The position numbers were made by a program, and so were the translations under genes. A stretch of DNA of 64,000 bases from an uncultured Lachnospiraceae bacterium (lineage in GTDB: Bacteria; Bacillota; Clostridia; Lachnospirales; Lachnospiraceae), in NCBI GenBank assembly GCA_910584585.1, contig CAJUBP010000020.1:881-64880 (forward strand). Direction: 5' to 3'. Of the stretch, positions 2,478 through 23,329 are shown piece after piece; within the stretch, counting starts at the first letter, position 1, and each line of letters starts with the position of its first letter. The notes under the pieces were generated by a model. That model was not told the origin of the DNA. It saw nothing but the letters and a program-made list of their open reading frames with translations, and ran no database searches.

Positions 2478-2508
2478 ATAAAAGTCCGCGAAAGCCTAAG
2501 CTTTCGCC
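2478..2508 (-). terminator. Possible intrinsic terminator of the etfA-ending operon
   Basis: On the minus strand, GCGAAAGC-TTAG-GCTTTCGC followed by GGACTTTTAT. The stem overlaps the etfA stop codon and the U-tract is weak. Confidence 0.35.
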
Positions 2509-3500
2509 TTCTTAATAGCCTCCGTCAGCACAGGCAGCACCTCGAACAAGTCTCCCACAACGCCGTAATCCGCAACGCCGAAAATAGGCGCATCCGGATC
2601 TTTATTGATGGCGATAATGCGGTCAGAACTGCTCATGCCGGCCAGATGCTGGATGGCGCCGGAGATTCCGCAGGCAATGTAGAGTTTGGGGCCGACGGTT
2701 TTACCGGTCTGGCCAACCTGGTGCGCATGGGGAATCCAGCCGGAATCCACAGCAGCCCGGGAAGCGCCTACGGTGCCGCCTAAAGCTTCTGCCAGAGCGC
2801 GGATTGGCTCGAAGCCTTCAGGACCTTTCACGCCGCGGCCGCCGGATACAATAATCTGCGCCCCTTCCAGGTCTACAGATTCTGCGTCCAGCTCCCGGAT
2901 TAATTCCACTACCTGAGTGCGGATATCTTCTGCAGGAACAGAGATGTCTTCTTTGATTACCTCCGCCTTATTGTCAGAGGGTTCTGTCATCTTAAATACG
3001 CCGGGGCGTACGGTGCCCATCTGAGGACGGTGCTCCGGGCACATAATGGTTGCCATGAGATTTCCGCCGAAAGCGGGACGGGTCCATGCCACATTGCCGG
3101 TTTCCTCGTCAATGTCAAGGGCGGTGCAGTCTGCGGTCAGTCCGGTGTGAAGGCGGCAGGCGATTCTGGGGCCTAAGTCCCGGCCGTTGTTGGTTGCGCC
3201 GATTAACATGCTGGTGGGCCCGTATTTTTCTACTAATTTCGTGATAGCAATGGCGTACGCGTCGGTGGAGTATTCTTTGAATTCTTCTCCGTCCACTGCA
3301 ATGACAGCGTCAGCGCCGTAACGGGAAGCAGCTTCCACAGAAGCGTCCACGTTGTGGCCGATGACAACGGCTGTCAATTTGCCGCCCTGCTTTTTCGCCA
3401 TATCTTTGCCGGGATTTAAAAGCTCCAGGCCGACTTTTTTCGGCGATCCGTCTTCTTTTGTTTCAATAAATACCCAAAGGTCTTTGGTTTTGACTTCCAT
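2496..3500 (-). CDS. etfA: Electron transfer flavoprotein alpha subunit (clostridial Bcd-associated type)
   Basis: 334 aa. C-terminal FAD-binding signature [17 protein letters not shown] and [13 protein letters not shown]. Directly downstream of etfB. Confidence 0.9.
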
Positions 3501-3514
3501 GATCCGATTCCTCC

Positions 3515-4318
3515 TTATACTAAGCCGCCGTCATTCATCAGCGCAAACAGCTTCATAGCGCTCTCTGCGGGAGTCTCCTCCTGGATGACTACGCCGCCGC
3601 TTTTCCTTGGCGGTACGAAAGTTGCCTTTACTTTTGTGGGGGAGCCTTTTAAGCCGGCCTGTTCCAGATTGATTTCTGTCAGGTCTGCGGCGGTAATGTC
3701 AGGGATTTCTGCGCGGTTGGCAGCCATTTTCCGTTTCAGGGTGGGATATCTGGGATCCCAGGAAGGTTTGGTGTAGGTTACCAGGCAGGGCATGGAGGCG
3801 GTAATTACCTGAACGCCTTCTTCCACTTCTTTCTTCACAACGACTTTGCCTTCTTCCACAGAAGCTTCCAGTCCGTATGTAATCTGAGGAAGGCCCAAGT
3901 GCTCCGCAATTTCAGGGCCGACCTGCGCGGTATCGCCGTCGATGGCCTGTTTTCCGCAGAAAATCAGATCAAAATGGCCCTCTAAAGTCTCCACATGGCG
4001 GATGGCCTGGGAGAGGATATAGCTGGTTGCCAGCGTGTCAGAACCGCCGAAAGCCCGGTCAGTGAGAAGGTATGCTTTGTCAGCGGCGATGGCCAGGCAT
4101 TCTTTTAAGGCGTTTTTGGCCTGTGCCGGGCCCATGGAAAGCACGACGATTTTCGTATCAGGGTTCTTGTCTTTGATGCGAGCGGCGGCCTCTAAGGCAT
4201 ATCCGTCAAAAGGATTGACGATGGAGGGAACGCCTTCGCGGATCAGTGTGTTTTTTACCGGATCAATTTTGATTTCGGTGGTGTCCGGCACTTGTTTGAC
4301 GCATACAAGTATGTTCAT
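3515..4318 (-). CDS. etfB: Electron transfer flavoprotein beta subunit
   Basis: 267 aa. N-terminus MNILVCVKQVPDT, typical of EtfB. Paired with etfA. Confidence 0.9.
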   Translation of the reverse strand: MNILVCVKQVPDTTEIKIDPVKNTLIREGVPSIVNPFDGYALEAAARIKDKNPDTKIVVLSMGPAQAKNALKECLAIAADKAYLLTDRAFGGSDTLATSYILSQAIRHVETLEGHFDLIFCGKQAIDGDTAQVGPEIAEHLGLPQITYGLEASVEEGKVVVKKEVEEGVQVITASMPCLVTYTKPSWDPRYPTLKRKMAANRAEIPDITAADLTEINLEQAGLKGSPTKVKATFVPPRKSGGVVIQEETPAESAMKLFALMNDGGLV

Positions 4319-5880
4319 TCTGATTCCTCCTGGTTGAGAAGATTTTTTTTGATTTTCCCAGTTGCAGTCCGGGGAAACTCCGTGACAAAGGCAATCTGGG
4401 TAGGTACTTTAAATTTGGCAAGATGCTGTTCGCAGTAATTTGTAATGTCCTCTTTGCTTAAAGCTTCTCCCTCTTTTAACTGGATAAAAGCCTTGACTGC
4501 CTGGCCCCGGATGGAATCCGGCACGCCGATGACGGCGGCGTCGGCAATCAGTTTATGGGAGGTGAGGACGCATTCCACTTCGGTGCAGCTGATGTTTTCG
4601 CCGGAACGCTTGATGATATGGCCGCAGCGGCCCAGGAAAAAGAGCCAGCCTTCTTCGTCCAGATAGCCCCAGTCGCCGGAGTGAAGCCAGCCTTCTGGAT
4701 CCAGCAGCCGCCTGGTAGCTTCCTCGTCCTGGTAATAGCCCTTTACCAGAGTGCGGCCAGGCACGCCGTGGACGCAGATTTCCCCTTCGGTTCCCGGCGG
4801 AAGAGTGTTTCCATGTTCATCTACAATCTTTATTTCGTAGGAGAGGGCGGGACGGCCCACGGAAGGCCAGTGCTGATCGCCCCAGGGAGGCACACAGGTG
4901 ACGGCGGAAACTGTTTCCGTCATACCGTAGGAGTTTAAAAGCCTCACATGAAAACGCTCTTCGAAAGCTTCTTTTTCCTCATCGCTGAGTCCCATGGAAA
5001 AGTAAATCTGTTTCAGATTGTGTTCCTTTTCCCAGGGCTGAACCGGCTGCATCAGCATGGTGCGGTTCATTAAAGACATGGTGTCTGTAAAGTCCGCCTT
5101 GTGTTCGTAAACCTGGCGCCAGAACCGCCTTGCGCTGTAATGTTCTGACATAATCAAAGCGCTTCCGGTGCAAATCACGGGAGCCGCAGCCATTTCCTGA
5201 AAATCCATATGGTAACAGGGCATGGAGGTGAAAAAGCGGTCCCCGGTGCGCATGCAGATTTGCTCTGCATGGAGCAGCCCGCCGTAAACCACGTTGCAGT
5301 GGGTGTAGATCACCCCTTTGGGATGGCGGGTGGTGCCGGAAGTAAACAGGATGACGGCGGTATCTTCGGAGCATACCTCAACCTGTTTTTTTAAAGTGTC
5401 CGGCTGCTGCCTGCTGGCGGATTCTAAGGAGATCACCCTCGGATCTTCTGATTCACCGCCGGCTAACAGCAGGTTCTTGGGCCGGAACTGCTCATAGAGC
5501 TCCAGATAGATATCAATGGAGCAGGGTTCTGCGATCAGATGGGAGATCCTGCACTTGTTCAGGATGTAGCTGCATTCCCCAGCCTGGAAATGTTCATTGA
5601 TTGGAACGGAGACGGCGCCGATTTGGGCAATTGCCAGCCAGCAGGCCAGATATTCCGGCCGGTTGTGCAGGTGGAGTGCCACGAAATCGCCTTTTTGAAT
5701 TCCCAGGTCTGTAAGCAGGTTGGCGATCTGCTTCACGTAACGGTCAAATTCTATATAGGTAAAAGCGCTGATTTCATCCTGAACGGAAATATATTTCAAA
5801 AAAAGGTTCTGTCCGTAAAGTCTTACGGTTTCATCCCATTGGCTTTTTAACGTGCGGGTTCCTGCCATATCTGCTATCAT
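4315..5880 (-). CDS. caiC: AMP-dependent acyl-CoA ligase, CaiC-like (crotonobetaine/carnitine-CoA ligase family)
   Basis: 521 aa. AMP-binding motif ILFTSGTTRHPKG. Long blocks match recalled E. coli CaiC (YSARRFWRQV; LSDEEKEAFEERFHVRLLNSYGMTET; AKFKVP). 4-nt overlap with the etfB start. Confidence 0.75.
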   Translation of the reverse strand: MIADMAGTRTLKSQWDETVRLYGQNLFLKYISVQDEISAFTYIEFDRYVKQIANLLTDLGIQKGDFVALHLHNRPEYLACWLAIAQIGAVSVPINEHFQAGECSYILNKCRISHLIAEPCSIDIYLELYEQFRPKNLLLAGGESEDPRVISLESASRQQPDTLKKQVEVCSEDTAVILFTSGTTRHPKGVIYTHCNVVYGGLLHAEQICMRTGDRFFTSMPCYHMDFQEMAAAPVICTGSALIMSEHYSARRFWRQVYEHKADFTDTMSLMNRTMLMQPVQPWEKEHNLKQIYFSMGLSDEEKEAFEERFHVRLLNSYGMTETVSAVTCVPPWGDQHWPSVGRPALSYEIKIVDEHGNTLPPGTEGEICVHGVPGRTLVKGYYQDEEATRRLLDPEGWLHSGDWGYLDEEGWLFFLGRCGHIIKRSGENISCTEVECVLTSHKLIADAAVIGVPDSIRGQAVKAFIQLKEGEALSKEDITNYCEQHLAKFKVPTQIAFVTEFPRTATGKIKKNLLNQEESE

Positions 5881-5986
5881 AACAATGCTCCTTATGTATT
5901 CCCTGGATTAATGTTTTTCCTGCCAGAGCTTGCCGGAAAACGGCGTTGGCTGTCAGTACAAAGTATGGTTTGCAGCCATCTGGCTT

Positions 5987-6913
5987 TTAAGAAAGTTTCT
6001 CAATTAATGCCGGCACAATTTTGTACATATCCCCTACCAGCCCGAAGTCTGCGTTCTTGAAAATAGGCGCGGATTTGTCTTTGTTGATGGCGACGATGAC
6101 TTTGGATTTGTTGATGCCGCCGATGTGCTGCACCTGGCCGGATACGCCCAGCACAACAATCAGTTCCGGTTTTACCTGTACGCCGGTGATTCCCATATAG
6201 CATGCCTTGGGCATCCATTTATTATTCTCAGCAACCGGACGGGAGCATCCCACTTCAGCGTCCAGAACTTTTGCAAGGTTCCTGCACATTTCAAGGTCTT
6301 CTTCGGCAGCGAGGCCCCGGCCTACGTCCACAATGCGCTTTGCGGCAACCAGATTTACTGCGCCTTCCTTTTTCTCATTGCGGGAAATTCTGCGGATGGA
6401 AGCGGCCGGCTCCCCTGCAATCGGAAGGATTTCAGCGCTGCCGGAGGTTTCCGCGGGGGCTTCAAAAATACCGGAAGAGATGGTGATTACGCCATAGTCT
6501 CCGGTGAAGCTCTCTTTGCGCTGGGCGGTTCCGCCGTAAACTACTCTGCGGCAGCAAAGAACGTCGTTTTCTACCGATAATTCGTTTACGCTTCCCAAAA
6601 CAGCGGTATCTAAATAAACGGAAAGTTTTCCTGCCAGGCAGCGTCCCCGGATGCTGTTGTTGACCATAACGATTGCTTTGGGCTGTTCTTTTACCAGCTT
6701 CGCAATCGTTTCTGAGTAATCTTCCGGAGCTCCTTCTTCGGAAACCGGACAATATACGATTTTATCTGCGCCGCAGGATACATATTCTTTTGCGGCAGCT
6801 TCATCGCCGAATACGACGGCAGTTACGGAATCTGCCAGATTTTTTGCTCCTGCACAGAATTCAGGCAGGACAGCATAGTTGTCACTTACAATAAAAACAG
6901 ACTGAATTGCCAT
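5987..6913 (-). CDS. fixB: FixB-like electron transfer flavoprotein alpha subunit
   Basis: 308 aa. CSRPVAENNKWM, LGVSGQVQHIGG and AINKDKSAPIF closely match recalled E. coli FixB blocks. Confidence 0.8.
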   Translation of the reverse strand: MAIQSVFIVSDNYAVLPEFCAGAKNLADSVTAVVFGDEAAAKEYVSCGADKIVYCPVSEEGAPEDYSETIAKLVKEQPKAIVMVNNSIRGRCLAGKLSVYLDTAVLGSVNELSVENDVLCCRRVVYGGTAQRKESFTGDYGVITISSGIFEAPAETSGSAEILPIAGEPAASIRRISRNEKKEGAVNLVAAKRIVDVGRGLAAEEDLEMCRNLAKVLDAEVGCSRPVAENNKWMPKACYMGITGVQVKPELIVVLGVSGQVQHIGGINKSKVIVAINKDKSAPIFKNADFGLVGDMYKIVPALIEKLS

Positions 6914-6932
6914 AATGAATATCCTCCTCTAC

Positions 6933-7697
6933 TTAAAATCCTTCTTTTTTCAGGAATGAAACAAGTGCGTCTACGGCTTCTTCGTTGTCGCCTTCCACGA
7001 TTTCCTGACGGCGTTCCTGCTGCTGGGGCGCAAGCTGTTCTGCTGTGCTGGCAGAAGGCGTGATTTCCGCGTCAATGGTAAGTACGTTCACAGGTTTCTT
7101 GCCTGCTTTCATAATTTCACGCATGCTGGGAACGGCCGGCACGTTGATTTCAGAGGAAACGGAGAGTACGGCGGGAAGAGGAACTTCCAGCACTTCCACT
7201 TCTTCTTCCAGGGTACGTTCCACTTCCAGGCTGCTGTCGGAGGCGATTTTAATGCCGGTGACATTGTTGACAACGGGTACGCCTAAGAGAGTTCCCGCCT
7301 GAATACCCACTTCCTGAAGGTACAGGTCGCTGGAGCCTGCGCCGCAGAGCACCACATCATAGGAATCCATGGCTTTTACTGCGCCTGCAATGGCTTTTGC
7401 CGTCTGTAAGGAATCGGAGAAGTCGTGGCTGTCGTCCATTACGAGGTTCAATTCATCGGCGCCTCTGGATAAAATATCTTTACGGATTTTGGAATTTTCC
7501 AGATAAGCGCTGGAACCGATGGAGAGAGCAGTCATTGTTCCGCTGCTTTCTGCTGCCAGTTTCTTGCCGCTCTCTAATGCGTTTAAGTCATACTGGCTGA
7601 TTTTCAGTGACGCGTCTGCCATTGCAAGAGTCCGGTCTGGCAGAACTGTAATTTCTTCTTCGTTTGGAACGATTTTACAACATGCAATGATTTTCAT
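6933..7697 (-). CDS. fixA: FixA-like electron transfer flavoprotein beta subunit
   Basis: Start moved to ATG 7697 (MKIIACCKIVPNEEEI), preceded by GGAAAGGAAG. KISQYDLNA, LCGAGSSDLY and PLPAVLSV resemble recalled E. coli FixA. Confidence 0.8.
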   Translation of the reverse strand: MKIIACCKIVPNEEEITVLPDRTLAMADASLKISQYDLNALESGKKLAAESSGTMTALSIGSSAYLENSKIRKDILSRGADELNLVMDDSHDFSDSLQTAKAIAGAVKAMDSYDVVLCGAGSSDLYLQEVGIQAGTLLGVPVVNNVTGIKIASDSSLEVERTLEEEVEVLEVPLPAVLSVSSEINVPAVPSMREIMKAGKKPVNVLTIDAEITPSASTAEQLAPQQQERRQEIVEGDNEEAVDALVSFLKKEGF

Positions 7698-7780
7698 ATA
7701 CCTGTTCTTCCTTTCCTGTTTGATCTTTTTTTCTGTACATTTTCTGGAAACTTTCACGAAAAAGTACTTTTGATGTGTTT

Positions 7781-7809
7781 ATCATAATCAAAGGATTTGC
7801 TTTTGTCAA
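7781..7809 (-). promoter_or_regulatory. Candidate sigma-A promoter of the fixAB-caiC-etfBA operon
   Basis: On the minus strand: TTGACA, 17-nt spacer, TATGAT, about 85 nt upstream of the fixA start. Confidence 0.45.
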
Positions 7810-7949
7810 TGGCTGAATTTCAAAAATTCCAAATTTTTTTCAGACTGTCATGAAAAAAACGTCATTTTTCAAGGGCTATTATTAGTAGAAAAATTAACAT
7901 TGTGCAATATTAACAAAATTTCCACTGAAAAATTGTCTGATATTGTGAT

Positions 7950-7979
7950 TTGACTTAGGAAACAGGTACGTGTTATACT
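7950..7979 (+). promoter_or_regulatory. Candidate sigma-A promoter of the CoA-transferase...symporter operon
   Basis: TTGACT, 18-nt spacer ending in TGT (extended -10), TATACT, about 80 nt upstream of ATG 8060. Confidence 0.4.
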
Positions 7980-8059
7980 TCCTAGCAACAGGACAGTGTA
8001 AGTTATATTTTTTTTGACTGTCAATTTTCACGTAAAAGTAAAAGAAGGGAGACGAAACT

Positions 8060-9247
8060 ATGAAGCCACTTTGTTCACTGAAAGTACTGGATCTTACAGA
8101 CGGCAATCCCTATACCGGCAGCATGTTTGCGGATTACGGCGCTGATGTGCTTAAGATTGAGAATCCTCACGGCGGCGATTCCATCCGCCGGCGCGGAGCC
8201 AAAGACGGGGAAGAGGGAATCTATCAGGCCTTTTATAACAGGGGAAAGAAGAGCATGACTCTTGATATCTCAAAAAGCGCCGGAGGCGAAGTGCTCAAAC
8301 GCCTGGTTCCTCATTTTGACATGCTGGTGGTCAACAAGCCGGAAGATGAGATGAAGAAGCTGGGGCTGGGATACGAGGATTTGAAGGCAGTGAATTCCAA
8401 ATTGATCTACGGCGTGCTGACGCCTTACGGAGAATCGGGCCCTTGGAAAGATATGCCGGATTATGATTTGCTGATTAATTCCAGATCCGGACTGCAGGAA
8501 AAGACAGGTTTTCCGGAGCGTCCCACCAAGTTCGGATTTCCGCTGGCTTACATCTACAGCAGCTGGCATTTAAGCGCAGGCATGCTTGCGGCCTATCTGA
8601 AATCCCAGGAAACCGGGGAAGGAATGAAAGTGTCTGTCAGCGTATGGCATACCATGGTGTCTTTGGACGATACCTTTGTGGAAGGGCTGCTGGGGATGAA
8701 TACGCTGCCCAAGCGGATTGGAAACGGGTTCCCCACCACCAACCCCACAGATACGTTCCGGTGCAAGGACGGCTGGTTCTCCCTGAGTATCGGAAGCGAT
8801 GTACAGTGGATTAATTTTGCCAAATGCGCGGGAAATGACGTGTGGGCGGAAGATCCCCGTTACGCCCATGACCCGGCAAGGTCTATGGAGAATTATTTCG
8901 GTGATTTGGATCAGCAGCTGCGGGATTATTTCGCAACCATCACCATTGAAGAAGCGGATATGATCTGCCGGGAAGCAATGGTGCCGGGAGGCCCCTGCAA
9001 TACTTTTAAGGAACTGGCAGCAGACGCCCAGGTGGCGGACCGGAAGATGCTGGTTCACGTTCAGGACCCGAAAGTTGGAGATACCCTGCAGATTGGCCGG
9101 GCAGCCAAGTTTATCGGCGGATCCGAGGATGGGGACGACGCCATTGCCCCGGCTCCTGTATTAGGCGCAGACACAGAGAATTATCTGAAAGAGCTTGGAA
9201 TCACCGGAGAAAAAATGGAGCATATGCGTGCAGAGGGAATTATTTGA
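8060..9247 (+). CDS. Family III (CaiB/BaiF-type) CoA-transferase 1
   Basis: 395 aa. N-terminal LKVLDLT....G..FADYGADVLKIE is the typical family III fold signature. RBS AAGGGAG. Confidence 0.8.
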   Translation: MKPLCSLKVLDLTDGNPYTGSMFADYGADVLKIENPHGGDSIRRRGAKDGEEGIYQAFYNRGKKSMTLDISKSAGGEVLKRLVPHFDMLVVNKPEDEMKKLGLGYEDLKAVNSKLIYGVLTPYGESGPWKDMPDYDLLINSRSGLQEKTGFPERPTKFGFPLAYIYSSWHLSAGMLAAYLKSQETGEGMKVSVSVWHTMVSLDDTFVEGLLGMNTLPKRIGNGFPTTNPTDTFRCKDGWFSLSIGSDVQWINFAKCAGNDVWAEDPRYAHDPARSMENYFGDLDQQLRDYFATITIEEADMICREAMVPGGPCNTFKELAADAQVADRKMLVHVQDPKVGDTLQIGRAAKFIGGSEDGDDAIAPAPVLGADTENYLKELGITGEKMEHMRAEGII

Positions 9248-9266
9248 ATGGAAAGGAGATAGAAAA

Positions 9267-10472
9267 ATGGCCAAATGGGAATCAAAAGGCGTATTTAAAG
9301 GCATGAAAGTGCTGGACTTTACCATTGCCTTAGCAGGCGTGTATACGGCCTGGCAGTTTGCGGATTTGGGCGCGGAAGTCTGGAAAGTGGAGCGTTACAA
9401 TGCCGGCGACCAGGCCAGAACCTGGGACCCCTTTGTGAACGGGATGAGCACTTTGTACTGTGCGTATAACAAGAATAAACAGAGCATTGAACTGGATCTG
9501 TCCTCCCAGGAAGGAAAGGACGTGATATACCGGATGGTGAAGGAAGCGGATGTGGTTCTTGAGAATTTCAAGAGCGGCTCCATTGATCGTCTGGGACTTG
9601 GATATGATAAGCTGAAAGAAATCAATCCCAAGATTGTATTTATGTCCTTAAGCGGATTCGGGGCAAGCGGCCCTCTGATGAAATATCCCTGTTATGACGC
9701 TATTGCGGCGGCAAGGGGCGGATTTGCGGCCAGCAACGGAGAGCCGGAGGGCGCGCCCATGAAAGCGGGGAACGCCAACTGCGACACCCTCACCGGAATT
9801 TACGGCTTTAACGCCGTGCTGATGGCGTTGATTGAAGCCCGCAGAACTGGAAAAGGATGCAGAATTGACGTGGGCATGTCGGACGTTGTGATGGTATCCT
9901 GCGCAGAAACCTTAATGGATTACGGCAAATATGGAGAGGCCCAGTCCAGATTCGGCAACCACGACAGATTTACGGCTCCTTACGGCATCTTTGAAGCAAG
10001 GGACGGCTGGGTATCCATTATTGCGGATACCGAGGAACGGTGGAAGAGCATGCAGAAGGTATTGGGGCTTGCGGAAGATCCCAGGTTTGCGGACAACGCG
10101 GGCAGGATTGCCAATAAAGAAGCATTGATAGAGCAGATAGAAGCCGTGACTGTTACCATGTTCCGCAGAGAAATCGAAGAAAAGCTGCTGGCGGCAGATG
10201 TTCCTGCGTCAGAAATGCTTCCCTTTATCGAAGCTTATACTTCGGATCATGCCAACCAGACAGAGGCGACCTCCTTTGCGTGGCAGGATAAAATTGGAAC
10301 GATCAGGTTTTACAATAATCCTATCCGCTTTAATGACGAAGTTTGTCCCATTCACAGAGGTTCTCCTCTGCTTGGACAGGATACCAGAGATATTCTGGCG
10401 TCTGTGGGCTACACCGAAGCGGAGATTCAGAAGCTGATTGACGATGAAGTGGCAGGAGAGCATATGTTTTAA
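9267..10472 (+). CDS. Family III (CaiB/BaiF-type) CoA-transferase 2
   Basis: Start moved to ATG 9267 (MAKWESKGVFKGMKVLDFT) after RBS AAAGGAG. Contains FADLGAEVWKVE and YDAIAAARGG motifs. Confidence 0.8.
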   Translation: MAKWESKGVFKGMKVLDFTIALAGVYTAWQFADLGAEVWKVERYNAGDQARTWDPFVNGMSTLYCAYNKNKQSIELDLSSQEGKDVIYRMVKEADVVLENFKSGSIDRLGLGYDKLKEINPKIVFMSLSGFGASGPLMKYPCYDAIAAARGGFAASNGEPEGAPMKAGNANCDTLTGIYGFNAVLMALIEARRTGKGCRIDVGMSDVVMVSCAETLMDYGKYGEAQSRFGNHDRFTAPYGIFEARDGWVSIIADTEERWKSMQKVLGLAEDPRFADNAGRIANKEALIEQIEAVTVTMFRREIEEKLLAADVPASEMLPFIEAYTSDHANQTEATSFAWQDKIGTIRFYNNPIRFNDEVCPIHRGSPLLGQDTRDILASVGYTEAEIQKLIDDEVAGEHMF

Positions 10473-10626
10473 GACGCCTGGCATAAGGAACTGTAGAAAA
10501 TAAGTGACACATATTGACTTGTCTATTTCTCCGATTGCACAGGCCAAAAAGCCTCAGCGTAAGCAGGCAGAAATAGAATTCCCAATTCCGGCAGGTTCGG
10601 GATGGGACGCAATGAGGAGGGCGGTT

Positions 10627-11247
10627 ATGCAGACAGAACAGTTTGTATTGGGGATGTTTGAGACAAATTGCTATCTTGTGACGGGAAAGGAACCGGGAGC
10701 GTGCATTCTCATAGACCCGGCAGATGACGCAGGAAAACTGATTTCCTATATGGAGCAGAAGCGTCTTGTGCCAAAGGCCGTGCTTCTGACCCATGGCCAT
10801 TACGACCATTTTCTGGCAGTGCCGGGCCTGCAGAAACGCTGGCCCAGTCTTCCGGTGTACTGCCATCCGCTGGACTGCCCCAAGGAATTGGAAGAACACG
10901 ATATGGGGATGGTATTTCCAACGGTAACAGCTTTCGCGAATGTCAGAAGTCTGGAAGAAGGGCAGGAATTAAATCTGGCCGGACTGACATTTCATGTGCT
11001 CCACACGCCAGGCCATACCCCAGGATCGGTAACCTTTCAGGCAGAAAACATTCTCTTTACCGGAGACACTTTATTCTGCGGCAGCATCGGCCGGACTGAT
11101 TTTGCAGGCGGGAACATGAAGCAGATGAAAGAGTCCCTTAGACGTTTGGCAGCCATTCCAGGAGATTATCTGGTCTATCCAGGCCACGAAGGACTCACAA
11201 AACTGGATAAGGAGAGAAAGACAAATCCGTATCTGGCATATTTATAA
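10627..11247 (+). CDS. MBL-fold metallo-hydrolase (glyoxalase II-like, possible thioesterase)
   Basis: Start moved to ATG 10627 (MQTEQF) after GAGGAGG. Metal motif THGHYDH and downstream HTPGHTPG. Confidence 0.75.
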   Translation: MQTEQFVLGMFETNCYLVTGKEPGACILIDPADDAGKLISYMEQKRLVPKAVLLTHGHYDHFLAVPGLQKRWPSLPVYCHPLDCPKELEEHDMGMVFPTVTAFANVRSLEEGQELNLAGLTFHVLHTPGHTPGSVTFQAENILFTGDTLFCGSIGRTDFAGGNMKQMKESLRRLAAIPGDYLVYPGHEGLTKLDKERKTNPYLAYL

Positions 11248-11265
11248 ATTTCGATACACAGGAAA
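11246..11265. repeat. Solo 20-nt match to the 5' boundary of the 208-nt hairpin repeat
   Basis: AAATTTCGATACACAGGAAA is identical to 2188..2207, and its last 16 nt match 20424..20439. It lies just after the MBL stop codon. Confidence 0.5.
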
Positions 11266-11280
11266 TACAGGAGGTTAAAA

Positions 11281-12054
11281 ATGGAAAACAAAAAAGTATT
11301 AACAGAGTTAAAAGAAGGCGTACTGATTGTAACAATCAACCGCAACGAGCGCAGAAACGCCATTGACCCGGAAACTTCCGCTATGATGGAAGAAGTATTG
11401 AACAATGCGGAAAAAGATCCGGATGTAGGCTGCATTATCATCACCGGAGCAGGCGAGAAGAGCTTCTGCGCAGGGGAAGATTTAAGCGCTTATGATGAGA
11501 ACGGCGGATGCCAGACCATTATGGAGCACGGCTTTGCAGGAATTACCGAACGTGTCAGCGCAAAACCCATTATCTGCGCAGCAAACGGCACTGCAGTGGC
11601 AGGAGGATTGGAAATCGCGGTATCCTGTGACTTGATTGTAGCGGCAGACCATGCCCGGTTCGGACTTTCCGAGGTGAAGGTAGGGCTTTTGGCAACCAGC
11701 GGCGGCTTAATCCGTCTTCCCAAACTGATTCCCCAGAAAATCGCTGCTGAAATGTGCTTAACCGGCAAGCTAATCTCCGCGCAGCGGGCTTATGAGGTGG
11801 GATTGGTAAATTACGTAGTTCCCGCTGATCAGGTAATGGAAAAAGCCATGGAACTGGCTCAGACTATCGCCAAAAACGCGCCGATTTCCCTGCGTCTCAC
11901 CAAAGAGATATTCCACATTGCGCCTCAGGTATCCCAGGAAGACGCGCAGCGTTTCTGCAACCGCTGCTGGGATTATATTGAGAAAACAGAAGACGCTACC
12001 GAAGGCCCCAGAGCATTCTTAGAGAAACGTCAGCCCAACTGGCAGGGAAAATAA
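11281..12054 (+). CDS. caiD: Enoyl-CoA hydratase/isomerase family, CaiD-like (carnitinyl-CoA dehydratase-like)
   Basis: 257 aa. ITGAGEKSFCAG, GFAGITE, GGLIRLPK and the C-terminal TEDATEGPRAFLEKRQPNWQGK resemble recalled E. coli CaiD. Confidence 0.7.
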   Translation: MENKKVLTELKEGVLIVTINRNERRNAIDPETSAMMEEVLNNAEKDPDVGCIIITGAGEKSFCAGEDLSAYDENGGCQTIMEHGFAGITERVSAKPIICAANGTAVAGGLEIAVSCDLIVAADHARFGLSEVKVGLLATSGGLIRLPKLIPQKIAAEMCLTGKLISAQRAYEVGLVNYVVPADQVMEKAMELAQTIAKNAPISLRLTKEIFHIAPQVSQEDAQRFCNRCWDYIEKTEDATEGPRAFLEKRQPNWQGK

Positions 12055-12158
12055 TGTTACGTTCCGCCAGACCGGCTGGAAATCAGAGATAGAAGAGAGA
12101 TAAAAACAGACAAAAGCAACACGTTCAAGCAAATAATAAATGATAAGGAGGAATTTTT

Positions 12159-13295
12159 ATGGATTTCAGAATCACAGAGGAACAGGAATTGATGGTACAG
12201 GCAATTGAGGAAGCTTTGACACGGGAGAATTTGGAGAGTTATTTCCAGGACTGCGACAAGAATCATGAACACCCGGAGAAATTCTGGGATATTTTGAAAG
12301 AATTAGGCTGCTTTAGCATGTTCCTGCCGGAAGAAGCAGGCGGAGACGGAGAAGGGGCTGTCACCATGTTTTTGGTAATGGAAGCTCTGGGAAGATGCGG
12401 CGCTCCGGTATACCTGTTCTGGGATCATGTAAAAGCAGACGCCCTTTTGGAGAACGGAACTAAAGAGCAGATTGACAAATTTATGCCTCTGTTCTTTGAA
12501 GGACATCCGGCTTACTCCCAGGGATTTTCCGAGCCCACTGCAGGTACGGATTTATCCAGTGACACGATTTTGACCACATATACCAGGAAAAACGGCAAAG
12601 TGTACATCAACGGACATAAACACTTTATTTCCGGCGCCCAGGGAAGCGATTACTGCCTGACTTTGGCGAAAAACAGCGAGAATCCGGAGCAGCTTACCCT
12701 CTGGTTTGTGCCCACCAATGTGCCGGAATGCAAGAAAGAGCCAATGGAGACCATGGGCCTTCATATGGAAAATGTAAACGACATCTGGTTCGACAATGTG
12801 GAAATTGAAGAAAAAGATATGTTCAGCACCGAAGGAAACGGGCTGCTTGCTACATCCAAAGGCTTTGACTATGAGCGCCTCATTGACGCGTTCAACGCTT
12901 ACGGCCAGGCACTCTGCGCATTTGAGGACGCGTGCCGTTACGCTAACCAGAGAGTGGCGTTCGGAAAAGAAATCGGAAAACTGCAGTTGATCCAGAATCA
13001 CATTATGGAAATGGCTATGCGTATTTACTCCATGCGGGATATGCTTCTGCACTTTGCGTGGAACAAAGACAACAATATGTTAAAGCGCGAAGAGGCTTCC
13101 ATTGCAAAACAGTACTGCTCTGAGGCTGCAAATGAGGTTGTTGACCATGCAATGCAGGTAATGGCAGGAATCGGATTCTGCGGAAGCCGTGTCAGCCGTA
13201 TTTACCGTGACCTGAGAATCACGCGTATTTCCGGCGGCACCGGTGAAATTCAGACCGTTATCGCAAGCAAACAGATTCTTAGAAAATATAAGTAA
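12159..13295 (+). CDS. caiA: Acyl-CoA dehydrogenase family flavoenzyme, CaiA-like
   Basis: 378 aa. NLESYFQDCD, YTRKNGKVYINGHKHFIS, CAFEDACRYANQRVAFGKEIGKLQLIQ and RISGGTGEIQ parallel recalled E. coli CaiA. Confidence 0.75.
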   Translation: MDFRITEEQELMVQAIEEALTRENLESYFQDCDKNHEHPEKFWDILKELGCFSMFLPEEAGGDGEGAVTMFLVMEALGRCGAPVYLFWDHVKADALLENGTKEQIDKFMPLFFEGHPAYSQGFSEPTAGTDLSSDTILTTYTRKNGKVYINGHKHFISGAQGSDYCLTLAKNSENPEQLTLWFVPTNVPECKKEPMETMGLHMENVNDIWFDNVEIEEKDMFSTEGNGLLATSKGFDYERLIDAFNAYGQALCAFEDACRYANQRVAFGKEIGKLQLIQNHIMEMAMRIYSMRDMLLHFAWNKDNNMLKREEASIAKQYCSEAANEVVDHAMQVMAGIGFCGSRVSRIYRDLRITRISGGTGEIQTVIASKQILRKYK

Positions 13296-13390
13296 AAAGA
13301 AACCGGATATGATACAGGCAGGGCAGAAAAGAATTCTCCAATTTTCTGCCTGTGCCTGCAAAGAACTGAAACGAAAGGATGGAAGCTATT

Positions 13391-14533
13391 ATGGAATTTA
13401 AATTAAATGATGAGCAGGAGTTGCTGCGGGACACAATCCGCGAATTTACAGAAAATGAAATTGCGCCCATTGCGGCAGAGCTGGATGAGCAGGAACGTTT
13501 TCCGGAAGAATTGATCCCCATGCTGGCAGATATCGGCGTAATGGGAATTCCGATTCCCGAGGAATACGGCGGAGTTGGAATGGGCAACTTAGATTATGTA
13601 CTGGCAGTGGAAGAGATTTCGAAAGCCTGCGCCAGCACCGGCGTTACTGTTTCCGCCCATACTTCCCTGTGCTGCTGGCCGATTCTGGCATTCGGAACTG
13701 AAGAGCAGAAACAGAAATATCTGCCGGATCTGGCAACGGGACAGAAATTGGGCGCGTTCGGCCTGACAGAGCCCAACGCCGGCACAGACGCGGCAATGCA
13801 GGCTTCCACAGCTGAGGATAAGGGAGATCACTACCTGCTCAACGGAAGCAAAATCTTCATTACCAACGGTTCTTACGCTGATGTTTATGTAGTTTTCGCA
13901 ATGACAGATAAGAGCGCAGGCAATAAAGGAATCAGCGCGTTTATTCTGGAGAAAGGCATGGAAGGATTCACATTTGGAAGCAAAGAGCGCAAAATGGGTA
14001 TCCGCGGCTCCGCTACCTATGAACTGGTATTTGACAATGTGAAGGTGCCGAAAGAAAATCTGCTGGGAGAAGTGGGAAAAGGATTTAAGATTGCAATGGC
14101 AACCTTAGACGGCGGAAGAATCGGAATTGCCGCTCAGGCTCTCGGAATTGCCCAGGGCGCCCTGGACGCTGCGTCAGCCTATGTGAAAGAGCGTATTCAG
14201 TTCGGCCGTCCCATCTCCGCGTTCCAGAATACACAGTTCACCCTTGCGGATATGAGAACTCGGGTGGAGGCAGCCCGTCTCCTGGTTTACCGTGCGGCTG
14301 CCAAGAAAGATGAAGGCGGAAAATATTCCGCAGAGGCTGCTATGGCAAAGCTGTTTGCTTCCGAAACGGCAAGAGACGTTACCTGCAAGGCAGTTCAGCT
14401 CTTCGGCGGATACGGCTATACCAGGGAATATCCGGTAGAGCGTATGATGCGCGACGCTAAGATTACAGAGATTTATGAAGGCACCAGCGAGGTGCAGAGA
14501 ATGGTAATCGCTGCGGATATGGGAATCAGATAA
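13391..14533 (+). CDS. bcd: Butyryl-CoA dehydrogenase-like acyl-CoA dehydrogenase
   Basis: Start taken at [12 protein letters not shown] (the track ORF starts 12 nt earlier). Canonical ACAD motifs include [10 protein letters not shown] with the catalytic Glu. Very similar to clostridial Bcd. Confidence 0.8.
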
Positions 14534-14553
14534 ACAACCGAAGGAGGAAAGCT

Positions 14554-14661
14554 ATGGGTGAAATTATTTTTTCTATCTGTATTGGGGGCTTTCTGGTAGT
14601 GTCAGGAATTGCCATGAACCTGATTCTTAAGAATGAAGAAAAGAAAAATAATATTAATTAA
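14554..14661 (+). CDS. 35-aa single-pass membrane peptide, candidate small accessory subunit of the downstream symporter (not in the ORF track)
   Basis: ATG 14554 lies 6 nt after a strong AAGGAGGA. Product is MGEIIFSICIGGFLVVSGIAMNLILKNEEKKNNIN, a hydrophobic helix plus a basic tail. It sits directly upstream of the SSS transporter. Confidence 0.6.
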   Translation: MGEIIFSICIGGFLVVSGIAMNLILKNEEKKNNIN

Positions 14662-14753
14662 CGTGGCTTCCTGAAACTTATCGCTGTCAGGCGCAGATGA
14701 TTGTCAGTCGTCTGTGCCCGGCGGCAGGAAGGACCCCAAGCGGAGGTGAGGAT

Positions 14754-16367
14754 GTGAACATATTTTTAATTGGAGTAATTGTCAGCATTATCGTATATCT
14801 GGTGGTGGGGCTGTATGCCGGCCGGCAGGTGAAGGATGTGAATGATTACTATGTCAGCGGCCGGAATGCGCCGACGCTTCTGATATCGGGAACGCTGTTT
14901 GCTTCCATGCTGTCAGTCAATGGGTTTATGGGTGATCAGGGCTGGTGTTATACTGGAAATATTACGTCTCTGGTATTTTTAAATTCTCTCTGTGCCTGCG
15001 GATATGTCTTCGGCCCTCTGGTATTTGGACGGTATTTGAGACGATCGGAGTGCACCACCATGCCGGAATATTTCGGCACCCGCTACAAAGACCCGAAAAT
15101 CCGCCGCGTGGCTGCCGTTATTACGATTGTGTCGCTGACAGCTTATCTGTTGGCGTGTATTACAGGGGTAGGCATCTTAATGCAGGAGCTGACCGGTTTT
15201 TCCTATGAGGTCTGCCTGCTGCTGGCCTGGGGATGCTTTACTGCGTTTACCTTTTATTCCGGGTCAAAAGGAGTGGTTCTCACTGATACCATTATGTTTC
15301 TGGTATTTCTGTTTGCGGCAATTCTCTCAGGTCCTGTGATTTTCAGAGCCCAGGGAGGGCTTTCGGAGCTTCTTGCAAATCTGATGAATAATCCGGCGCT
15401 GCCGGAAGGTCTTTTGGATTTTCATGGAAATATTGCTGGAACCGGAGCCCAGGATGTATTTGGGGCAATGATGTATGCCATTACCATGGGGATTATCTGG
15501 TTTATTACCGTGGCAGTGTCTCCCTGGCAGGCGGGCCGGAACCTGATGGCCAAAAGCGAGCATGTGACCTTCCGTTCTGGAGTGGTTGCCGCCATCTGCA
15601 CTGTGATTTTTCTGATGTACTTAAACCTGCAGTCTGTGGCTGTGCTGAACTTAAACGGAGCATTGGAAGATCCCCAGAGAGTTCTGATCTGGGCGTCCTT
15701 TGAGGTGCTTCCCAAATTGCTGGGAACGCTGCTGCTGGCAGGGATTATGGCGGCTGGATTATCCAGCGCTTCCACCTTTTTATCCGTCATCGGATTCTCC
15801 GTGACTTCTGACATTATTAAGAAAGATTTTAAAGATGAGGCGGCGCAGCTTCGGTTCAGCCGTATCGTAATGCTTGTAGTTGGGGTGCTTGCATTGGTAC
15901 TGGCTTATATGGGACTGGGCGGAATCCGGGTGATTTCATGGTTTGCCTCCACAATTATTGCTGCAAGCTGGGTGGTTCCCGGGGTAGGAAGCATTTTGAG
16001 CAAAAAGCTTTCTGCCACAGGCGCGCGGTATTCCATGATTGCTGGATTTTTGGGATTTATGGTTACCAAATGTCTGGCGGGCTTTGGGATACAGCCCTTT
16101 GCGTCACTGTTTGTGAATTTCCTGGATCCATTTTTTATCGGTCTGTATCTCAGTCTGATATTTGCGGTAATCGGAAGCAAGCTTCATCCGGTGGGAAAGG
16201 AAGAGGCGGAGTACCGCAAAGAGCTCTTAGTGCTGCCGGAATCGGAAAAGTCGGCGGCAGAGTACAAGCGTGACCGGATGTATGGATATTTACTGATAGC
16301 AGTGGGAATCGGGACTACTTGTTTCCTGCTGTTTGGATGGGCGCTGCCCTATAACGGTTTGCTGTAA
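14754..16367 (+). CDS. Sodium:solute symporter (SSS) family transporter
   Basis: Start moved to GTG 14754 (VNIFLIGVIVSI) after GGAGGTGAG. About 13 predicted hydrophobic segments with an SSF-like pattern. Confidence 0.75.
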   Translation: MNIFLIGVIVSIIVYLVVGLYAGRQVKDVNDYYVSGRNAPTLLISGTLFASMLSVNGFMGDQGWCYTGNITSLVFLNSLCACGYVFGPLVFGRYLRRSECTTMPEYFGTRYKDPKIRRVAAVITIVSLTAYLLACITGVGILMQELTGFSYEVCLLLAWGCFTAFTFYSGSKGVVLTDTIMFLVFLFAAILSGPVIFRAQGGLSELLANLMNNPALPEGLLDFHGNIAGTGAQDVFGAMMYAITMGIIWFITVAVSPWQAGRNLMAKSEHVTFRSGVVAAICTVIFLMYLNLQSVAVLNLNGALEDPQRVLIWASFEVLPKLLGTLLLAGIMAAGLSSASTFLSVIGFSVTSDIIKKDFKDEAAQLRFSRIVMLVVGVLALVLAYMGLGGIRVISWFASTIIAASWVVPGVGSILSKKLSATGARYSMIAGFLGFMVTKCLAGFGIQPFASLFVNFLDPFFIGLYLSLIFAVIGSKLHPVGKEEAEYRKELLVLPESEKSAAEYKRDRMYGYLLIAVGIGTTCFLLFGWALPYNGLL

Positions 16368-16377
16368 AGTGTGATAT

Positions 16378-16424
16378 GTTTCCTGCTGTTTGGATGGGCA
16401 TTGCCCGATAATGGGATACTGTGA
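16378..16424 (+). repeat. Duplicated copy of the last 16 codons plus stop of the symporter gene
   Basis: TGTTTCCTGCTGTTTGGATGGGC... at 16320..16367 recurs at 16377..16424, offset by 57 nt and in frame. The duplicate TGA overlaps the next gene's start region. Confidence 0.8.
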
Positions 16425-17284
16425 TGAAAAAAGAGTTGGGTTCATTGAAGAGCTGGGGCTTCCTGATGGGAGGCAATCTGCTGTACGCGCTGGCTTTGGC
16501 GCTGTTTCTGACTGGAAATAATATTGCGGCGGGAGGCCTTGCGGGAATTGCAGTGGTGCTCTGCAGTTTCCTGCCGCTGGGAGTGGGAATGCTGACTTTG
16601 GTTATGAATATTCCCATTCTGGCCAGCGCGGTTGTAATTAAAGGATGGCGGTATACCATAGGCACCATTGTCGCGGCGTTTTTGTATTCATTTACGGTGG
16701 AGATTCTTGACCGGATGATGCCGACGCTGACGGATGAACCGCTGGTGGCAGCTATTTTCGGCGGGGTGCTCTACGGAATCGGCATGACGCTGCTTACCGT
16801 CGGTAATGTGTCGGTGGGAGGCACGGATCTTTTGTGCCGTCTGCTGAATGAAAAGATACCGTCTTTAAGCGTTGCCAGACTGAGCCTGTTTATCGACGGG
16901 GGCATTGTGGTTCTGGCGATGCTGGTATTTGGAAATGTGGAAGTGGGGCTGTATGCCATTGTGACAATTTTTGTTTGTTCCACGGTGGCTGACCGGGTGC
17001 TTCTGGGCATTGGACGGGGAAGCATCTGCCTTGTGGTCAGCGGGAAAGACGCGAAAGAAATTGCGTATCCTCTGATGGAGAAGCTGGGGCGGGCAGTGAC
17101 CCGCTGGGACAGCAATGGCATGTATACCGGTGAAGAAAGAAATGTTTTGATGGTGGCGGTGCGTCCCCGGGAAGTGTTTCAGGTGAAAACGCTTTTGAAG
17201 GAATTAGACCCCAGCGCTTTTGTGGTGGTGGTTCCGGCGAACGAGCTTATCGGAGGGCATTTCAGCGGAAGTAAAATAACTTGA
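16421..17284 (+). CDS. YitT-family membrane protein (DUF2179 C-terminal domain)
   Basis: 287 aa. Multi-pass N-terminus and a C-terminal soluble domain with RAVTRWDSNGMYTGEE, typical of YitT. Confidence 0.7.
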   Translation: MMKKELGSLKSWGFLMGGNLLYALALALFLTGNNIAAGGLAGIAVVLCSFLPLGVGMLTLVMNIPILASAVVIKGWRYTIGTIVAAFLYSFTVEILDRMMPTLTDEPLVAAIFGGVLYGIGMTLLTVGNVSVGGTDLLCRLLNEKIPSLSVARLSLFIDGGIVVLAMLVFGNVEVGLYAIVTIFVCSTVADRVLLGIGRGSICLVVSGKDAKEIAYPLMEKLGRAVTRWDSNGMYTGEERNVLMVAVRPREVFQVKTLLKELDPSAFVVVVPANELIGGHFSGSKIT

Positions 17285-17355
17285 TTGGGAGCGGTTTTGG
17301 GGCCCGGGAAACGGGAGATTCGGAACGCTGCCGAGATAAAACTAGGAGGAAGACT

Positions 17356-18637: not shown

Positions 18638-19654
18638 ATGTACGAATTTAAAATGCCGGAATGCCAAGTGAATATGGAAATCAATAAGCCGGATCCCTAT
18701 CCCCTGCTGTCGGAAGGAATGAAACGGGTCATTGACTATCAGGCGGAACATTCCAAAGATGCTTTTGACACCAACTGCAGTTGGACGGAGCTTCGGGAAA
18801 AATATATTGAAGAGCGTAAATTCTGGAACGAAGGCGGGCCGGAGCCTTTCAAAGTTGTCAATACGGAAGTGGAAGGCCCCATCGGGCCGGTTCCGGTGCG
18901 GGTGTACTACCCGGATGAGAAGCCGGACAGAAACGCGCTGGTGTTTATCCATGGAGGCGGATTTACAGTTGGAAGTAACGACACCCACGACCGGATGATG
19001 CGTTGCATTATGGAATCCGGCGATTGTGTGGTGATTGGCGTGGACTATCATCTGGCGCCGGAAGCCAAATTCCCCATTCCGCTGTATGAATCTGCGGCAG
19101 TGATCCGTCATTTCCATGAAAATGCCCGGCAGTACAACATTTCTCCGGATAAAATGGCAATTGCCGGTGATTCCGGCGGCGCCAATCTTGCCCTGGCGGC
19201 CAACCTGTATCTGAGAGACGCCTTCGGCGGCAACGATTATATCAGTGCGCTTCTGCTCTATTATGGAAGCTACGGCATGTTTGACGGATATTCCTGGAGA
19301 CTGAACGGAACGGCTTTGGACGGTATGACTAAGGCGGATATGCTGGCCTATGTCAGCTATTATCTGGAAGAGGGGATGGCGGATATGGAAAATCCCTATT
19401 TCTCCACCCTGAACAATGACCTGACCCACGGGGTTCCCGCAACTTATCTCTGCTGCGGGGAATTAGATCCTCTGCTGGGCGATTCTCAGGCCCTCCATGC
19501 CATCTTAAAGAGCCGGGGAGTACATACAAAGCTGGAGACTGTGCCCGGCGTACTCCATGCGTTTATGCATTACGGCCGTATGATGGAAGAGGCGGTTCAC
19601 TGCCTGAAAGAAAGCGGAGAATTCTACGTATCGGTGCGTAAAGGAGAAAATTAA
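18638..19654 (+). CDS. Alpha/beta-hydrolase esterase, hormone-sensitive-lipase/Aes-like
   Basis: HGGGF oxyanion motif, GDSGGAN nucleophile elbow, and a late His in GVLHAF. Its start lies 1 nt after the MFS stop. Confidence 0.75.
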   Translation: MYEFKMPECQVNMEINKPDPYPLLSEGMKRVIDYQAEHSKDAFDTNCSWTELREKYIEERKFWNEGGPEPFKVVNTEVEGPIGPVPVRVYYPDEKPDRNALVFIHGGGFTVGSNDTHDRMMRCIMESGDCVVIGVDYHLAPEAKFPIPLYESAAVIRHFHENARQYNISPDKMAIAGDSGGANLALAANLYLRDAFGGNDYISALLLYYGSYGMFDGYSWRLNGTALDGMTKADMLAYVSYYLEEGMADMENPYFSTLNNDLTHGVPATYLCCGELDPLLGDSQALHAILKSRGVHTKLETVPGVLHAFMHYGRMMEEAVHCLKESGEFYVSVRKGEN

Positions 19655-23305: not shown

Positions 23306-23329
23306 ATAAGGATAACGAGGAGAAACAGT

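Follow-up and report, generated by a model that had tools for sequence, protein, structure and literature searches.

A mosaic of cai-, bbu- and Bcd-type genes in anaerobic Firmicutes, a candidate electron-sink pathway for a carnitine-type acid

Which acid is reduced by a bacterial gene cluster in which relatives of the carnitine enzymes of Escherichia coli stand beside a butyryl-coenzyme A (CoA) dehydrogenase and its flavoprotein? The question is raised by 64,000 nucleotides of DNA from an uncultured Lachnospiraceae bacterium (GenBank assembly GCA_910584585.1, contig CAJUBP010000020.1, positions 881 to 64,880), hereafter the window, in which an earlier note had seen a candidate carnitine/gamma-butyrobetaine pathway. 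Judged by sequence comparison, the locus is a unit of roughly 17 genes, in which cai-, bbu- and Bcd-type parts are combined as a mosaic and which has an acyl-CoA dehydrogenase (ACAD) subfamily of its own. The unit probably activates a small beta-hydroxy acid as its CoA ester, dehydrates it and reduces the enoyl-CoA with two couples of a flavoenzyme and an electron-transferring flavoprotein (ETF), thereby serving as a fermentative electron sink on the same plan as the carnitine (cai) and caffeate (Car) systems. Our tentative choice of substrate is a carnitine-type beta-hydroxy acid (L-carnitine/crotonobetaine or a close analogue), for which the locus would encode a CoA-dependent reductive electron-sink pathway. 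No description of the cluster was found in the literature; possibly it represents a route for carnitine-type compounds that has not been described before.

Gene content and conservation of the unit

An open reading frame (ORF) listing combined with Pfam and NCBIfam profile searches of the window recovered all 12 genes named in the earlier note, each in its place and in two divergent operons. The extent proposed there (2496-16367) was too small, as the functional unit reaches to ~21.7 kb and adds genes for a YitT protein, an MFS transporter, an Aes-like esterase and a LacI-family regulator, which accompany the cluster in 18-26 related loci. The features are:

2496..3500, minus strand, EtfA, large subunit of a bifurcating-type ETF (Pfam ETF and ETF_alpha)
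3515..4318, minus strand, EtfB, small subunit and partner of the EtfA at 2496..3500 (Pfam ETF)
4315..5880, minus strand, CaiC-family AMP-forming acyl-CoA ligase, the putative priming enzyme (NF005947)
5987..6913, minus strand, FixB/YdiR-type ETF large subunit
6933..7697, minus strand, FixA/YdiQ-type ETF small subunit (NF002888)
7698..8059, divergent promoter region with a repeated 23-nt box
8060..9247, plus strand, CT1, BbuB-like family III CoA-transferase (Pfam CoA_transf_3)
9267..10472, plus strand, CT2, BbuC-like family III CoA-transferase
10627..11247, plus strand, MBL-fold hydrolase of the GloB/YcbL (glyoxalase-II) type, a probable thioesterase (Pfam Lactamase_B)
11281..12054, plus strand, CaiD-like crotonase-fold hydratase/dehydratase (Pfam ECH_1)
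12159..13295, plus strand, ACAD-1, CaiA-like flavoenzyme from a third clade of the CaiA/YdiO family
13379..14533, plus strand, Bcd, of the genuine butyryl-CoA dehydrogenase type
14554..14661, plus strand, 35-residue single-helix peptide ahead of the symporter (ORF)
14697..16367, plus strand, SSS (sodium:solute symporter) carrier (Pfam SSF)
16421..17284, plus strand, YitT/DUF2179 membrane protein (Pfam)
17281..18636, plus strand, MFS transporter (Pfam MFS_1)
18638..19654, plus strand, cytosolic Aes-type (hormone-sensitive-lipase family) esterase (NF007547)
20649..21692, minus strand, LacI-family regulator (Pfam LacI and Peripla_BP_1)

Strictly anaerobic Firmicutes from guts and digesters, ~40 species of Lachnospiraceae, Oscillospiraceae and Clostridiaceae, share the cluster. 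A protein search found ACAD-1 in 38 species-representative genomes, protein look-ups added further contigs, and the cluster's signature protein occurred in 998 blocks of the assembly collection. Isolates carrying the cluster are Petralouisia muris, Lachnospiraceae bacterium 3-1, Eubacterium sp. 14-2, Clostridium brassicae and Clostridiaceae bacterium strain 9; Lacrimispora saccharolytica was recognized as a carrier through CT2. Metagenome-assembled genomes with the cluster are labelled Roseburia, Hungatella, Butyricicoccus, Pygmaiobacter, Faecalibacterium, Oscillospiraceae and Saccharofermentanales, and come from mouse, human, cat, rabbit, roe deer and digesters.

Genes were counted per locus using a tblastn table and all-against-all ORF clustering of 45 related loci (given below by L numbers). 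ACAD-1, found in 41 loci, was the most conserved protein of the cluster (72-99% identical across them), and Bcd was present in 39, the remaining two loci being cut by contig ends. The other genes were the crotonase (32 loci), the ligase (31), FixA and CT1 (30 each), CT2 and SSS (29 each), FixB (28), the esterase (Abhydrolase_3; 26), MFS, MBL and the LacI-family regulator (24 each, the last at 52-95% identity), EtfBA (22) and YitT (18). The only recurrent accessory genes in the clustering of the 45 loci were those for a PatB lyase, an M20 amidohydrolase, a second MFS, a MaoC dehydratase and an ArAE fragment. EtfBA is placed after the ligase or, as in L024, between ACAD-1 and Bcd, and L043 has its transferases after the SSS gene. 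The most distant group (L002-L004 and L040) has its genes split into two blocks, the first with esterase-ligase-FixB-FixA facing ACAD-1-MFS, and the second with C-S lyase-Bcd-CT1-CT2-ECH-EtfB-EtfA. Gene content has thus been kept while gene order was reshuffled, in several families and at 60-99% identity, which indicates that selection has acted on one function and that the cluster has spread laterally. The pattern indicates that the gene set works as one unit that has been passed on horizontally.

Three gene calls were adjusted or supported by the relatives. The ATG start of the FixA-like gene agrees with the 254-residue gene called there; the ORF of the MBL-fold hydrolase opens at 10504 with a probable start at 10627, giving the 206 residues called in relatives; and a gene of 35-39 residues is called at the place of the single-helix peptide in L005-L008 and L116.

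Relatives of the enzymes in the cai, bbu and Bcd systems

Seven protein types of the unit have their closest characterized relatives in carnitine or gamma-butyrobetaine systems. The gamma-butyrobetaine reference is the bbu (gbu) cluster of Emergencia timonensis (Rajakovich et al. 2021, PMC8364193), which comprises bbuA (an ACAD-like trimethylamine-lyase), bbuB/C (class III transferases), bbuD (ferredoxin), bbuE (BCCT) and bbuF (thioesterase), and in which BbuB and BbuC were shown experimentally to be specific for gamma-butyrobetaine and active only together (PMC8364193). The BbuA sequence was taken from the supplement of that paper and the full cluster from a metagenome contig with 100% identity (L080). 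CT1 was 36% identical to BbuB (276 bits), with scores of 171 bits for BbuC, 64 for CaiB and 158 for the best solved structure, and CT2 was 38% identical to BbuC (303 bits), with scores of 150 for BbuB, 125 for CaiB and 214 for the best solved structure. The pairing is reciprocal, and in both systems the class III CoA-transferases are neighbours, arranged in one order and ~30% identical to each other (29% for CT1 and CT2, 31% for BbuB and BbuC). True bbu clusters are 69-77% identical to one another in these proteins, and CT1/CT2 lie well below this range. A search for CT2 homologues was saturated by its own clade, and outgroups were reached by a search of 1.84 billion representatives. Beyond that clade the relatives (P0241-P0389) were mostly fused two-domain transferases of ~800 residues, with a few single-domain proteins; among the nearest was P0302, a BbuC-type fragment that is 77% identical to BbuC and 43% to CT2. 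This fragment and the pairing with BbuB/C make CT1 and CT2 the proteins of the cluster with the most specific link to a betaine system. As a side observation, CT1/CT2 and BbuB/BbuC look like a split form of the fused ~800-residue family III transferases. The earlier description of two CaiB/BaiF-type transferases holds for a family III tandem and not for any specific likeness to CaiB (24% and 28% identity; 103 and 168 bits on NF002914 vs a cut-off of 413), and no CaiB orthologue is present in the cluster.

The likeness to bbu also includes an ACAD-family enzyme, a thioester hydrolase and crotonyl-CoA metabolism downstream. Unlike the bbu cluster, however, the window has no BbuA orthologue, BbuD ferredoxin or BbuE BCCT, and its thioesterase is of a different fold (MBL), whereas bbu is without ETF, ligase, hydratase and Bcd. 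Neither ACAD is BbuA, as ACAD-1 (28%) and Bcd (33%) fall far from the 70% identity that the bbu authors set as the BbuA family limit (PMC8364193), and the elimination of trimethylamine, which the earlier note had considered, finds no homology support. Its view of BbuA as CaiA-like holds at the family level only (27% identity between BbuA and CaiA). BLAST of the window proteins gave no match to BbuD, BbuE or BbuF, and BbuA-like genes of 40-60% identity in other metagenomes had unrelated neighbours and gave no lead. A bbu variant in L068 (3827-7783 and 13011-14639, BbuA 79% identical) has no BCCT nearby and has EamA and SSS carriers upstream, which makes carrier type a weak argument. In L068 a GroEL-family gene follows bbuF; native GroEL-ES was required for soluble BbuA in the bbu study (PMC8364193).

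For the carnitine enzymes, the references were the E. coli K-12 cai/fix region and two Firmicute cai clusters (Sporomusa and Desulfitobacterium); the latter are real cai clusters and the nearest outgroup of ACAD-1 (~48-50%). The window proteins were 43% (CaiA), 41% (CaiC), 42% (CaiD), 46% (FixA) and 38% (FixB) identical to those of E. coli, with E-values from 1e-63 to 1e-145, far beyond chance. Of the three sequence blocks that the earlier note had given as common to both, two were indeed found in E. coli, CAFEDA.RYANQRV.FG in CaiA and CSRPVAEN.KWM in FixB, whereas the CaiC block matched the window protein only. By its sequence the ligase lies inside the CaiC range, just under the model cut-off: it scored 633.8 bits on NF005947 (crotonobetaine/carnitine-CoA ligase; cut-off 651) and 378 on the next family, and was 49% identical to the CaiC of Sporomusa/Desulfitobacterium and 30% to FadK, Firmicute and E. 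coli CaiC being themselves 48-53% identical. The FixA-like protein passed its model (249.9 bits on NF002888, cut-off 219), is 46% identical to YdiQ as well as to FixA and 50% to Sporomusa FixA, and has the motif SSDLY.Q.VG in common with E. coli FixA. For the FixB-like protein (41% to YdiR, 40% to Firmicute FixB) the score on the FixB model was 241 bits vs a cut-off of 549, and its equal distance from bifurcating and canonical solved ETFs (106-119 bits) is compatible with either mode for this couple. The crotonase keeps both catalytic Glu positions and scored 210 bits on the CaiD equivalog NF002936 (cut-off 500), other crotonase models being higher.

The position of ACAD-1 sets the limit to this kinship. 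It was 48% identical to Firmicute CaiA and 44% to YdiO, and stayed below the threshold of the CaiA model (427 bits vs 540 on NF002885). The CaiA proteins of Sporomusa and Desulfitobacterium are 72-80% identical to that of E. coli; true CaiA is therefore very conserved, and ACAD-1 at 43-48% is not one of them. For comparison, E. coli YdiO is 48% identical to CaiA. A neighbour-joining tree (27 sequences, 376 columns, 100 bootstraps) gave three clades, ACAD-1, CaiA and YdiO, each with 100% support, with CaiA and YdiO as sisters in 79% of the replicates and ACAD-1 with CaiA in 20%. The catalytic Glu has one and the same position in the three clades, all of which are without that of the medium-chain acyl-CoA dehydrogenase type; the clade-specific residues (six common to window and CaiA, seven to window and YdiO, 13 to CaiA and YdiO) are uninformative on charge recognition. 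Of the comparisons that the earlier note had called for, the alignments placed the transferases nearest to BbuB/BbuC, and the tree placed ACAD-1 outside CaiA in a clade of its own. The cluster does have the carnitine/gamma-butyrobetaine ancestry proposed there, and the locus is not a cai operon.

A true cai operon was ruled out by the separate clade of ACAD-1 and by the lack of CaiB, CaiT, CaiE and FixCX; caiT, caiE, fixC and fixX had already been noted as missing, and none was found in the cluster. The locus is like the cai/fix systems of E. coli (caiTABCDE/fixABCX) and Firmicutes in its divergent operons, CaiC-family ligase, CaiD-like crotonase, CaiA/YdiO-family ACAD with the same catalytic Glu position and FixA/FixB-type flavoprotein, and in its logic of priming by a ligase, cycling by a transferase, dehydration and reduction. 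It differs from them in being without a CaiB orthologue, CaiT/BCCT, CaiE, FixC and FixX, in having a LacI-type regulator instead of CaiF, and in adding Bcd/EtfBA, the MBL hydrolase, SSS, MFS, YitT and the esterase. The order in Sporomusa/Desulfitobacterium is (BCCT)-CaiA-CaiB-FixABCX-CaiC-MaoC dehydratase, the MaoC-type dehydratase (L047 17630-18493; L048 17508-18356) replacing the crotonase CaiD; a MaoC that is 42-43% identical to it is inserted beside the crotonase in L116 (11234-12076), L022 and L016. The E. coli MFS gene yaaU (L001 12308-13639) adjoins fixX, and counterparts that are 59-60% identical lie beside cai/fix of Sporomusa and Desulfitobacterium (L048 18778-20097; L047 20523-21137), so that yaaU may belong to the carnitine system. 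There is also a likeness to the E. coli ydiF-ydiO-ydiQRST-fadK cluster in ACAD-1 and in the ETF pair, whose NCBIfam scores were slightly higher on the YdiQ/YdiR than on the FixA/FixB models. Unlike that cluster, the window has a CaiC-like ligase and family III transferases (YdiF is of another type), is without YdiS, YdiT and YdiF, and has its ACAD-1 outside the YdiO clade.

The second flavoenzyme couple is Bcd with EtfBA. Bcd was ~70% identical to the C. difficile enzyme (5ol2_C; 557 bits), and the best solved relatives of EtfA are all bifurcating (CarE 344 bits, A. fermentans 336, C. difficile 321), canonical ETFs scoring <=189. EtfB carries DGDTAQVG at residue 127, which we take to be the flavin adenine dinucleotide-binding signature of bifurcating EtfB. 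By sequence this is a genuine Bcd/EtfBA module, an orthologue of Bcd with an ETF of the bifurcating group, for which bifurcation is predicted; the earlier claim of an extra Bcd and EtfBA was well founded. The module is like the C. difficile Bcd/EtfAB complex (5OL2) and unlike its clostridial setting, as the genes around it are cai/bbu-like and thiolase, Hbd and Crt are absent. The caffeate system of Acetobacterium woodii (CarABCDE) offers a parallel with its priming ligase, cycling CoA-transferase, and ACAD with bifurcating ETF as electron sink. However, CarC scored 375 bits vs 557 for Bcd, the EtfA of the window has no ferredoxin domain, and the cluster has a hydratase and a second ACAD/ETF couple. 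A Car-type system was rejected, as CarC and other solved ACADs and transferases scored below Bcd and BbuB/C; the comparison covered these proteins, with Fld and Bai proteins outside it.

Proposed pathway and its alternatives

Every enzyme class required by the following scheme is present and intact. The SSS and MFS carriers would import the substrate, which the cytosolic Aes-like esterase may first release from an ester such as O-acylcarnitine; O-acyl derivatives of a hydroxy acid would accord with the esterase found in 26 loci. The CaiC-family ligase would form the first CoA ester with ATP, and CT1 and CT2, probably as a hetero-oligomer like BbuB/BbuC, would then move CoA from the product to fresh substrate with no further ATP. 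The CaiD-like crotonase would dehydrate the ester to the enoyl-CoA, ACAD-1 would reduce this with electrons from its own FixAB-type flavoprotein, and the genuine Bcd with bifurcating EtfBA would reduce a plain C4 enoyl-CoA. The MBL-fold hydrolase may release CoA when needed, and the LacI-family protein would control both operons from their common intergenic region. Gene content, family assignments, closest relatives and conservation as one unit are observed; the substrate, the direction, the hetero-oligomer, the electron donor and the end product are what the scheme proposes.

A carnitine-type substrate is favoured because of the ancestry of the ligase, transferases, ACAD-1, FixAB, crotonase and occasional MaoC. 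Several observations weigh against it. Neither the window cluster nor the ~45 related loci have a BCCT or other known betaine carrier, a BCCT being present in E. coli cai, Sporomusa cai and E. timonensis bbu; the regulator is of the LacI type and not CaiF; ACAD-1, at 43-48% identity to CaiA only, branches outside CaiA and YdiO; and the C-S lyase (13 loci) and M20 amidohydrolase (five loci) have no obvious role with carnitine. Carnitine is scarce in some of the hosts (rabbit, roe deer, digesters and a Clostridium named after Brassica), and a pathway from carnitine to gamma-butyrobetaine leaves the always-present Bcd without a task.

Nearly as likely is the same chemistry on an uncharged or sulfur-bearing short acid, for which cai-/bbu-like enzymes were recruited and retuned. 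The candidates would be 3-hydroxybutyrate or its esters, 3-hydroxypropionate/acrylate, 3-mercapto acids from cysteine S-conjugates and 3,4-dihydroxybutyrate, and the product butyrate or propionate. Such a substrate is consistent with the genuine Bcd and bifurcating EtfBA as core parts of the cluster, with the LacI-type regulator, with an ACAD-1 equally close to YdiO and CaiA, with herbivore, digester and plant-associated hosts and with the carriers (SSS, MFS and, in distant loci, the ArAE fragment), which are of types usual for carboxylates. Also in its favour is the C-S lyase, which shares the Bcd-CT-CT-ECH operon in L002-L004 and L040, stands behind the esterase in L025 and its relatives, and is followed by the M20 amidohydrolase in five loci; it is, however, missing from the window and from about two-thirds of the loci. 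Further points speak against it: the ligase is specifically CaiC-like (634 vs 378 bits for the next family) and no fatty-acid ligase, the nearest relatives of CT1/CT2 are the gamma-butyrobetaine-specific BbuB/C, and an uncharged or sulfur-bearing acid leaves the need for two ACAD/ETF couples unexplained.

We consider it unlikely that the locus is a plain Firmicute counterpart of cai/fix, converting L-carnitine/crotonobetaine to excreted gamma-butyrobetaine with Bcd/EtfBA as a co-regulated redox module alongside. The CaiC-, CaiD-, CaiA/YdiO- and FixAB-like parts are all there, and the BbuB/C-related transferase pair could perform a CaiB-type exchange. Yet Bcd is present in every long-enough locus and moves with the other genes through rearrangements, ACAD-1 is no CaiA orthologue, FixCX are missing, and there is no CaiT-like antiporter although exchange of substrate and product is central in E. 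coli.

Improbable, though chemically conceivable, is the whole route from L-carnitine to trimethylamine and butyrate in one organism without BbuA. The CaiD-like crotonase would dehydrate carnitinyl-CoA to crotonobetainyl-CoA, from which ACAD-1, reduced by FixAB, would reductively expel trimethylamine at the allylic C4 to give crotonyl-CoA; the always-adjacent Bcd/EtfBA would reduce this to butyryl-CoA, from which the BbuBC-like transferase would take its CoA. In no other reading would every core gene have a job, and the elimination step is without homology support because no BbuA is present.

Finally, that a housekeeping Bcd/EtfBA for butyrate synthesis and an unrelated acyl-CoA operon are neighbours by chance is very improbable: Bcd and EtfBA are ordinary in sequence and EtfBA is non-adjacent in about one-third of the loci, but Bcd adjoins ACAD-1 or shares the CT1-CT2-ECH operon in 39 of 41 loci from several families, there is no thiolase, 3-hydroxybutyryl-CoA dehydrogenase or Crt alongside, unlike in a butyrate-synthesis operon, and the carrier Lacrimispora saccharolytica, to our knowledge, makes no butyrate from sugars.

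The choice between these substrates has consequences for how gut carnitine metabolism is described. The anaerobic conversion of dietary carnitine to gamma-butyrobetaine has been credited to the cai operon of low-abundance Enterobacteria, and that of gamma-butyrobetaine to trimethylamine to rare bbu carriers, bbu and cai reportedly never sharing a genome (PMC8364193). If the substrate is of the carnitine type, a large unnoticed group of obligate anaerobes would join the pathway to the precursor of trimethylamine N-oxide, and the genes to be counted in metagenomic risk studies would change. A one-organism route to trimethylamine and butyrate, if true, would overturn the published two-species requirement. 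With another substrate, the cluster would show how cai and bbu enzymes were retuned, and would be a warning on carnitine annotation, since databases already give several of the proteins the label CaiB-like or L-carnitine dehydratase. As there are culturable carriers, the question can be put to a direct test.

Regulation, accessory genes and neighbours of the unit

In the gap between the operons (7698-8059), promoter-like sites face both ways (7809-7781 on the minus strand, 7950-7979 on the plus strand). A 23-nt box occurs once before each operon, at 7744-7766 (CTGGAAACTTTCACGAAAAAGTA) and 8018-8040 (CTGTCAATTTTCACGTAAAAGTA), the two copies being 83% alike, and may be the operator at which the conserved LacI-family regulator acts. 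An Rfam search of the region gave no match, and hence no riboswitch or other RNA clue to the ligand. A sigma-54 activator in L036 was 38-42% identical to those beside Firmicute cai clusters; this likeness was too unspecific and was not used.

The MBL-fold hydrolase scored 106 bits on TIGR03413 (GloB), below the cut-off, and its best structures were TTHA1623, YcbL and hydroxyacylglutathione hydrolases. The esterase passed the acetyl esterase model NF007547 (412 bits vs 389), and no signal peptide was seen in it. The SSS carrier had weak matches only, to the PanF, PutP and VC_2705 models, and the MFS transporter was recognized even in the most distant loci at 45-46% identity. Across the related loci the carriers are SSS, one or two MFS and YitT, with the ArAE fragment in distant loci.

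The C-S lyase, absent from the window, is of the PatB/cystalysin type and stands within the operon in 13 loci, in three arrangements. It scored 406 bits on TIGR04350 (cut-off 340) with cystalysin as the best structure, and the M20 amidohydrolase follows it in 5 of these 13 loci. Positions for these accessory genes are L025 18938-20104 and L030 17676-18698, and the loci also include L002-L004, L018, L023, L027-L031, L040 and L042.

Between the esterase and LacI genes, the window carries an IS200/IS605-family transposase gene (19869-20312) with a strong hairpin (20374-20403), an insertion that its nearest relatives (L005-L011, ~89% DNA identity) do not have. Just upstream of the cluster, in a stretch of 41% GC, the gene at 565-2181 encodes a 538-residue protein in which an AAA-ATPase region is combined with a PD-(D/E)XK nuclease domain at the C terminus, and is not conserved with the cluster. 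At 21851-26470, a protein that joins a rubredoxin-like zinc ribbon to a glutamate-synthase domain precedes a 1046-residue hybrid histidine kinase; these genes probably lie outside the cluster, since they are syntenic in the closest relatives only.

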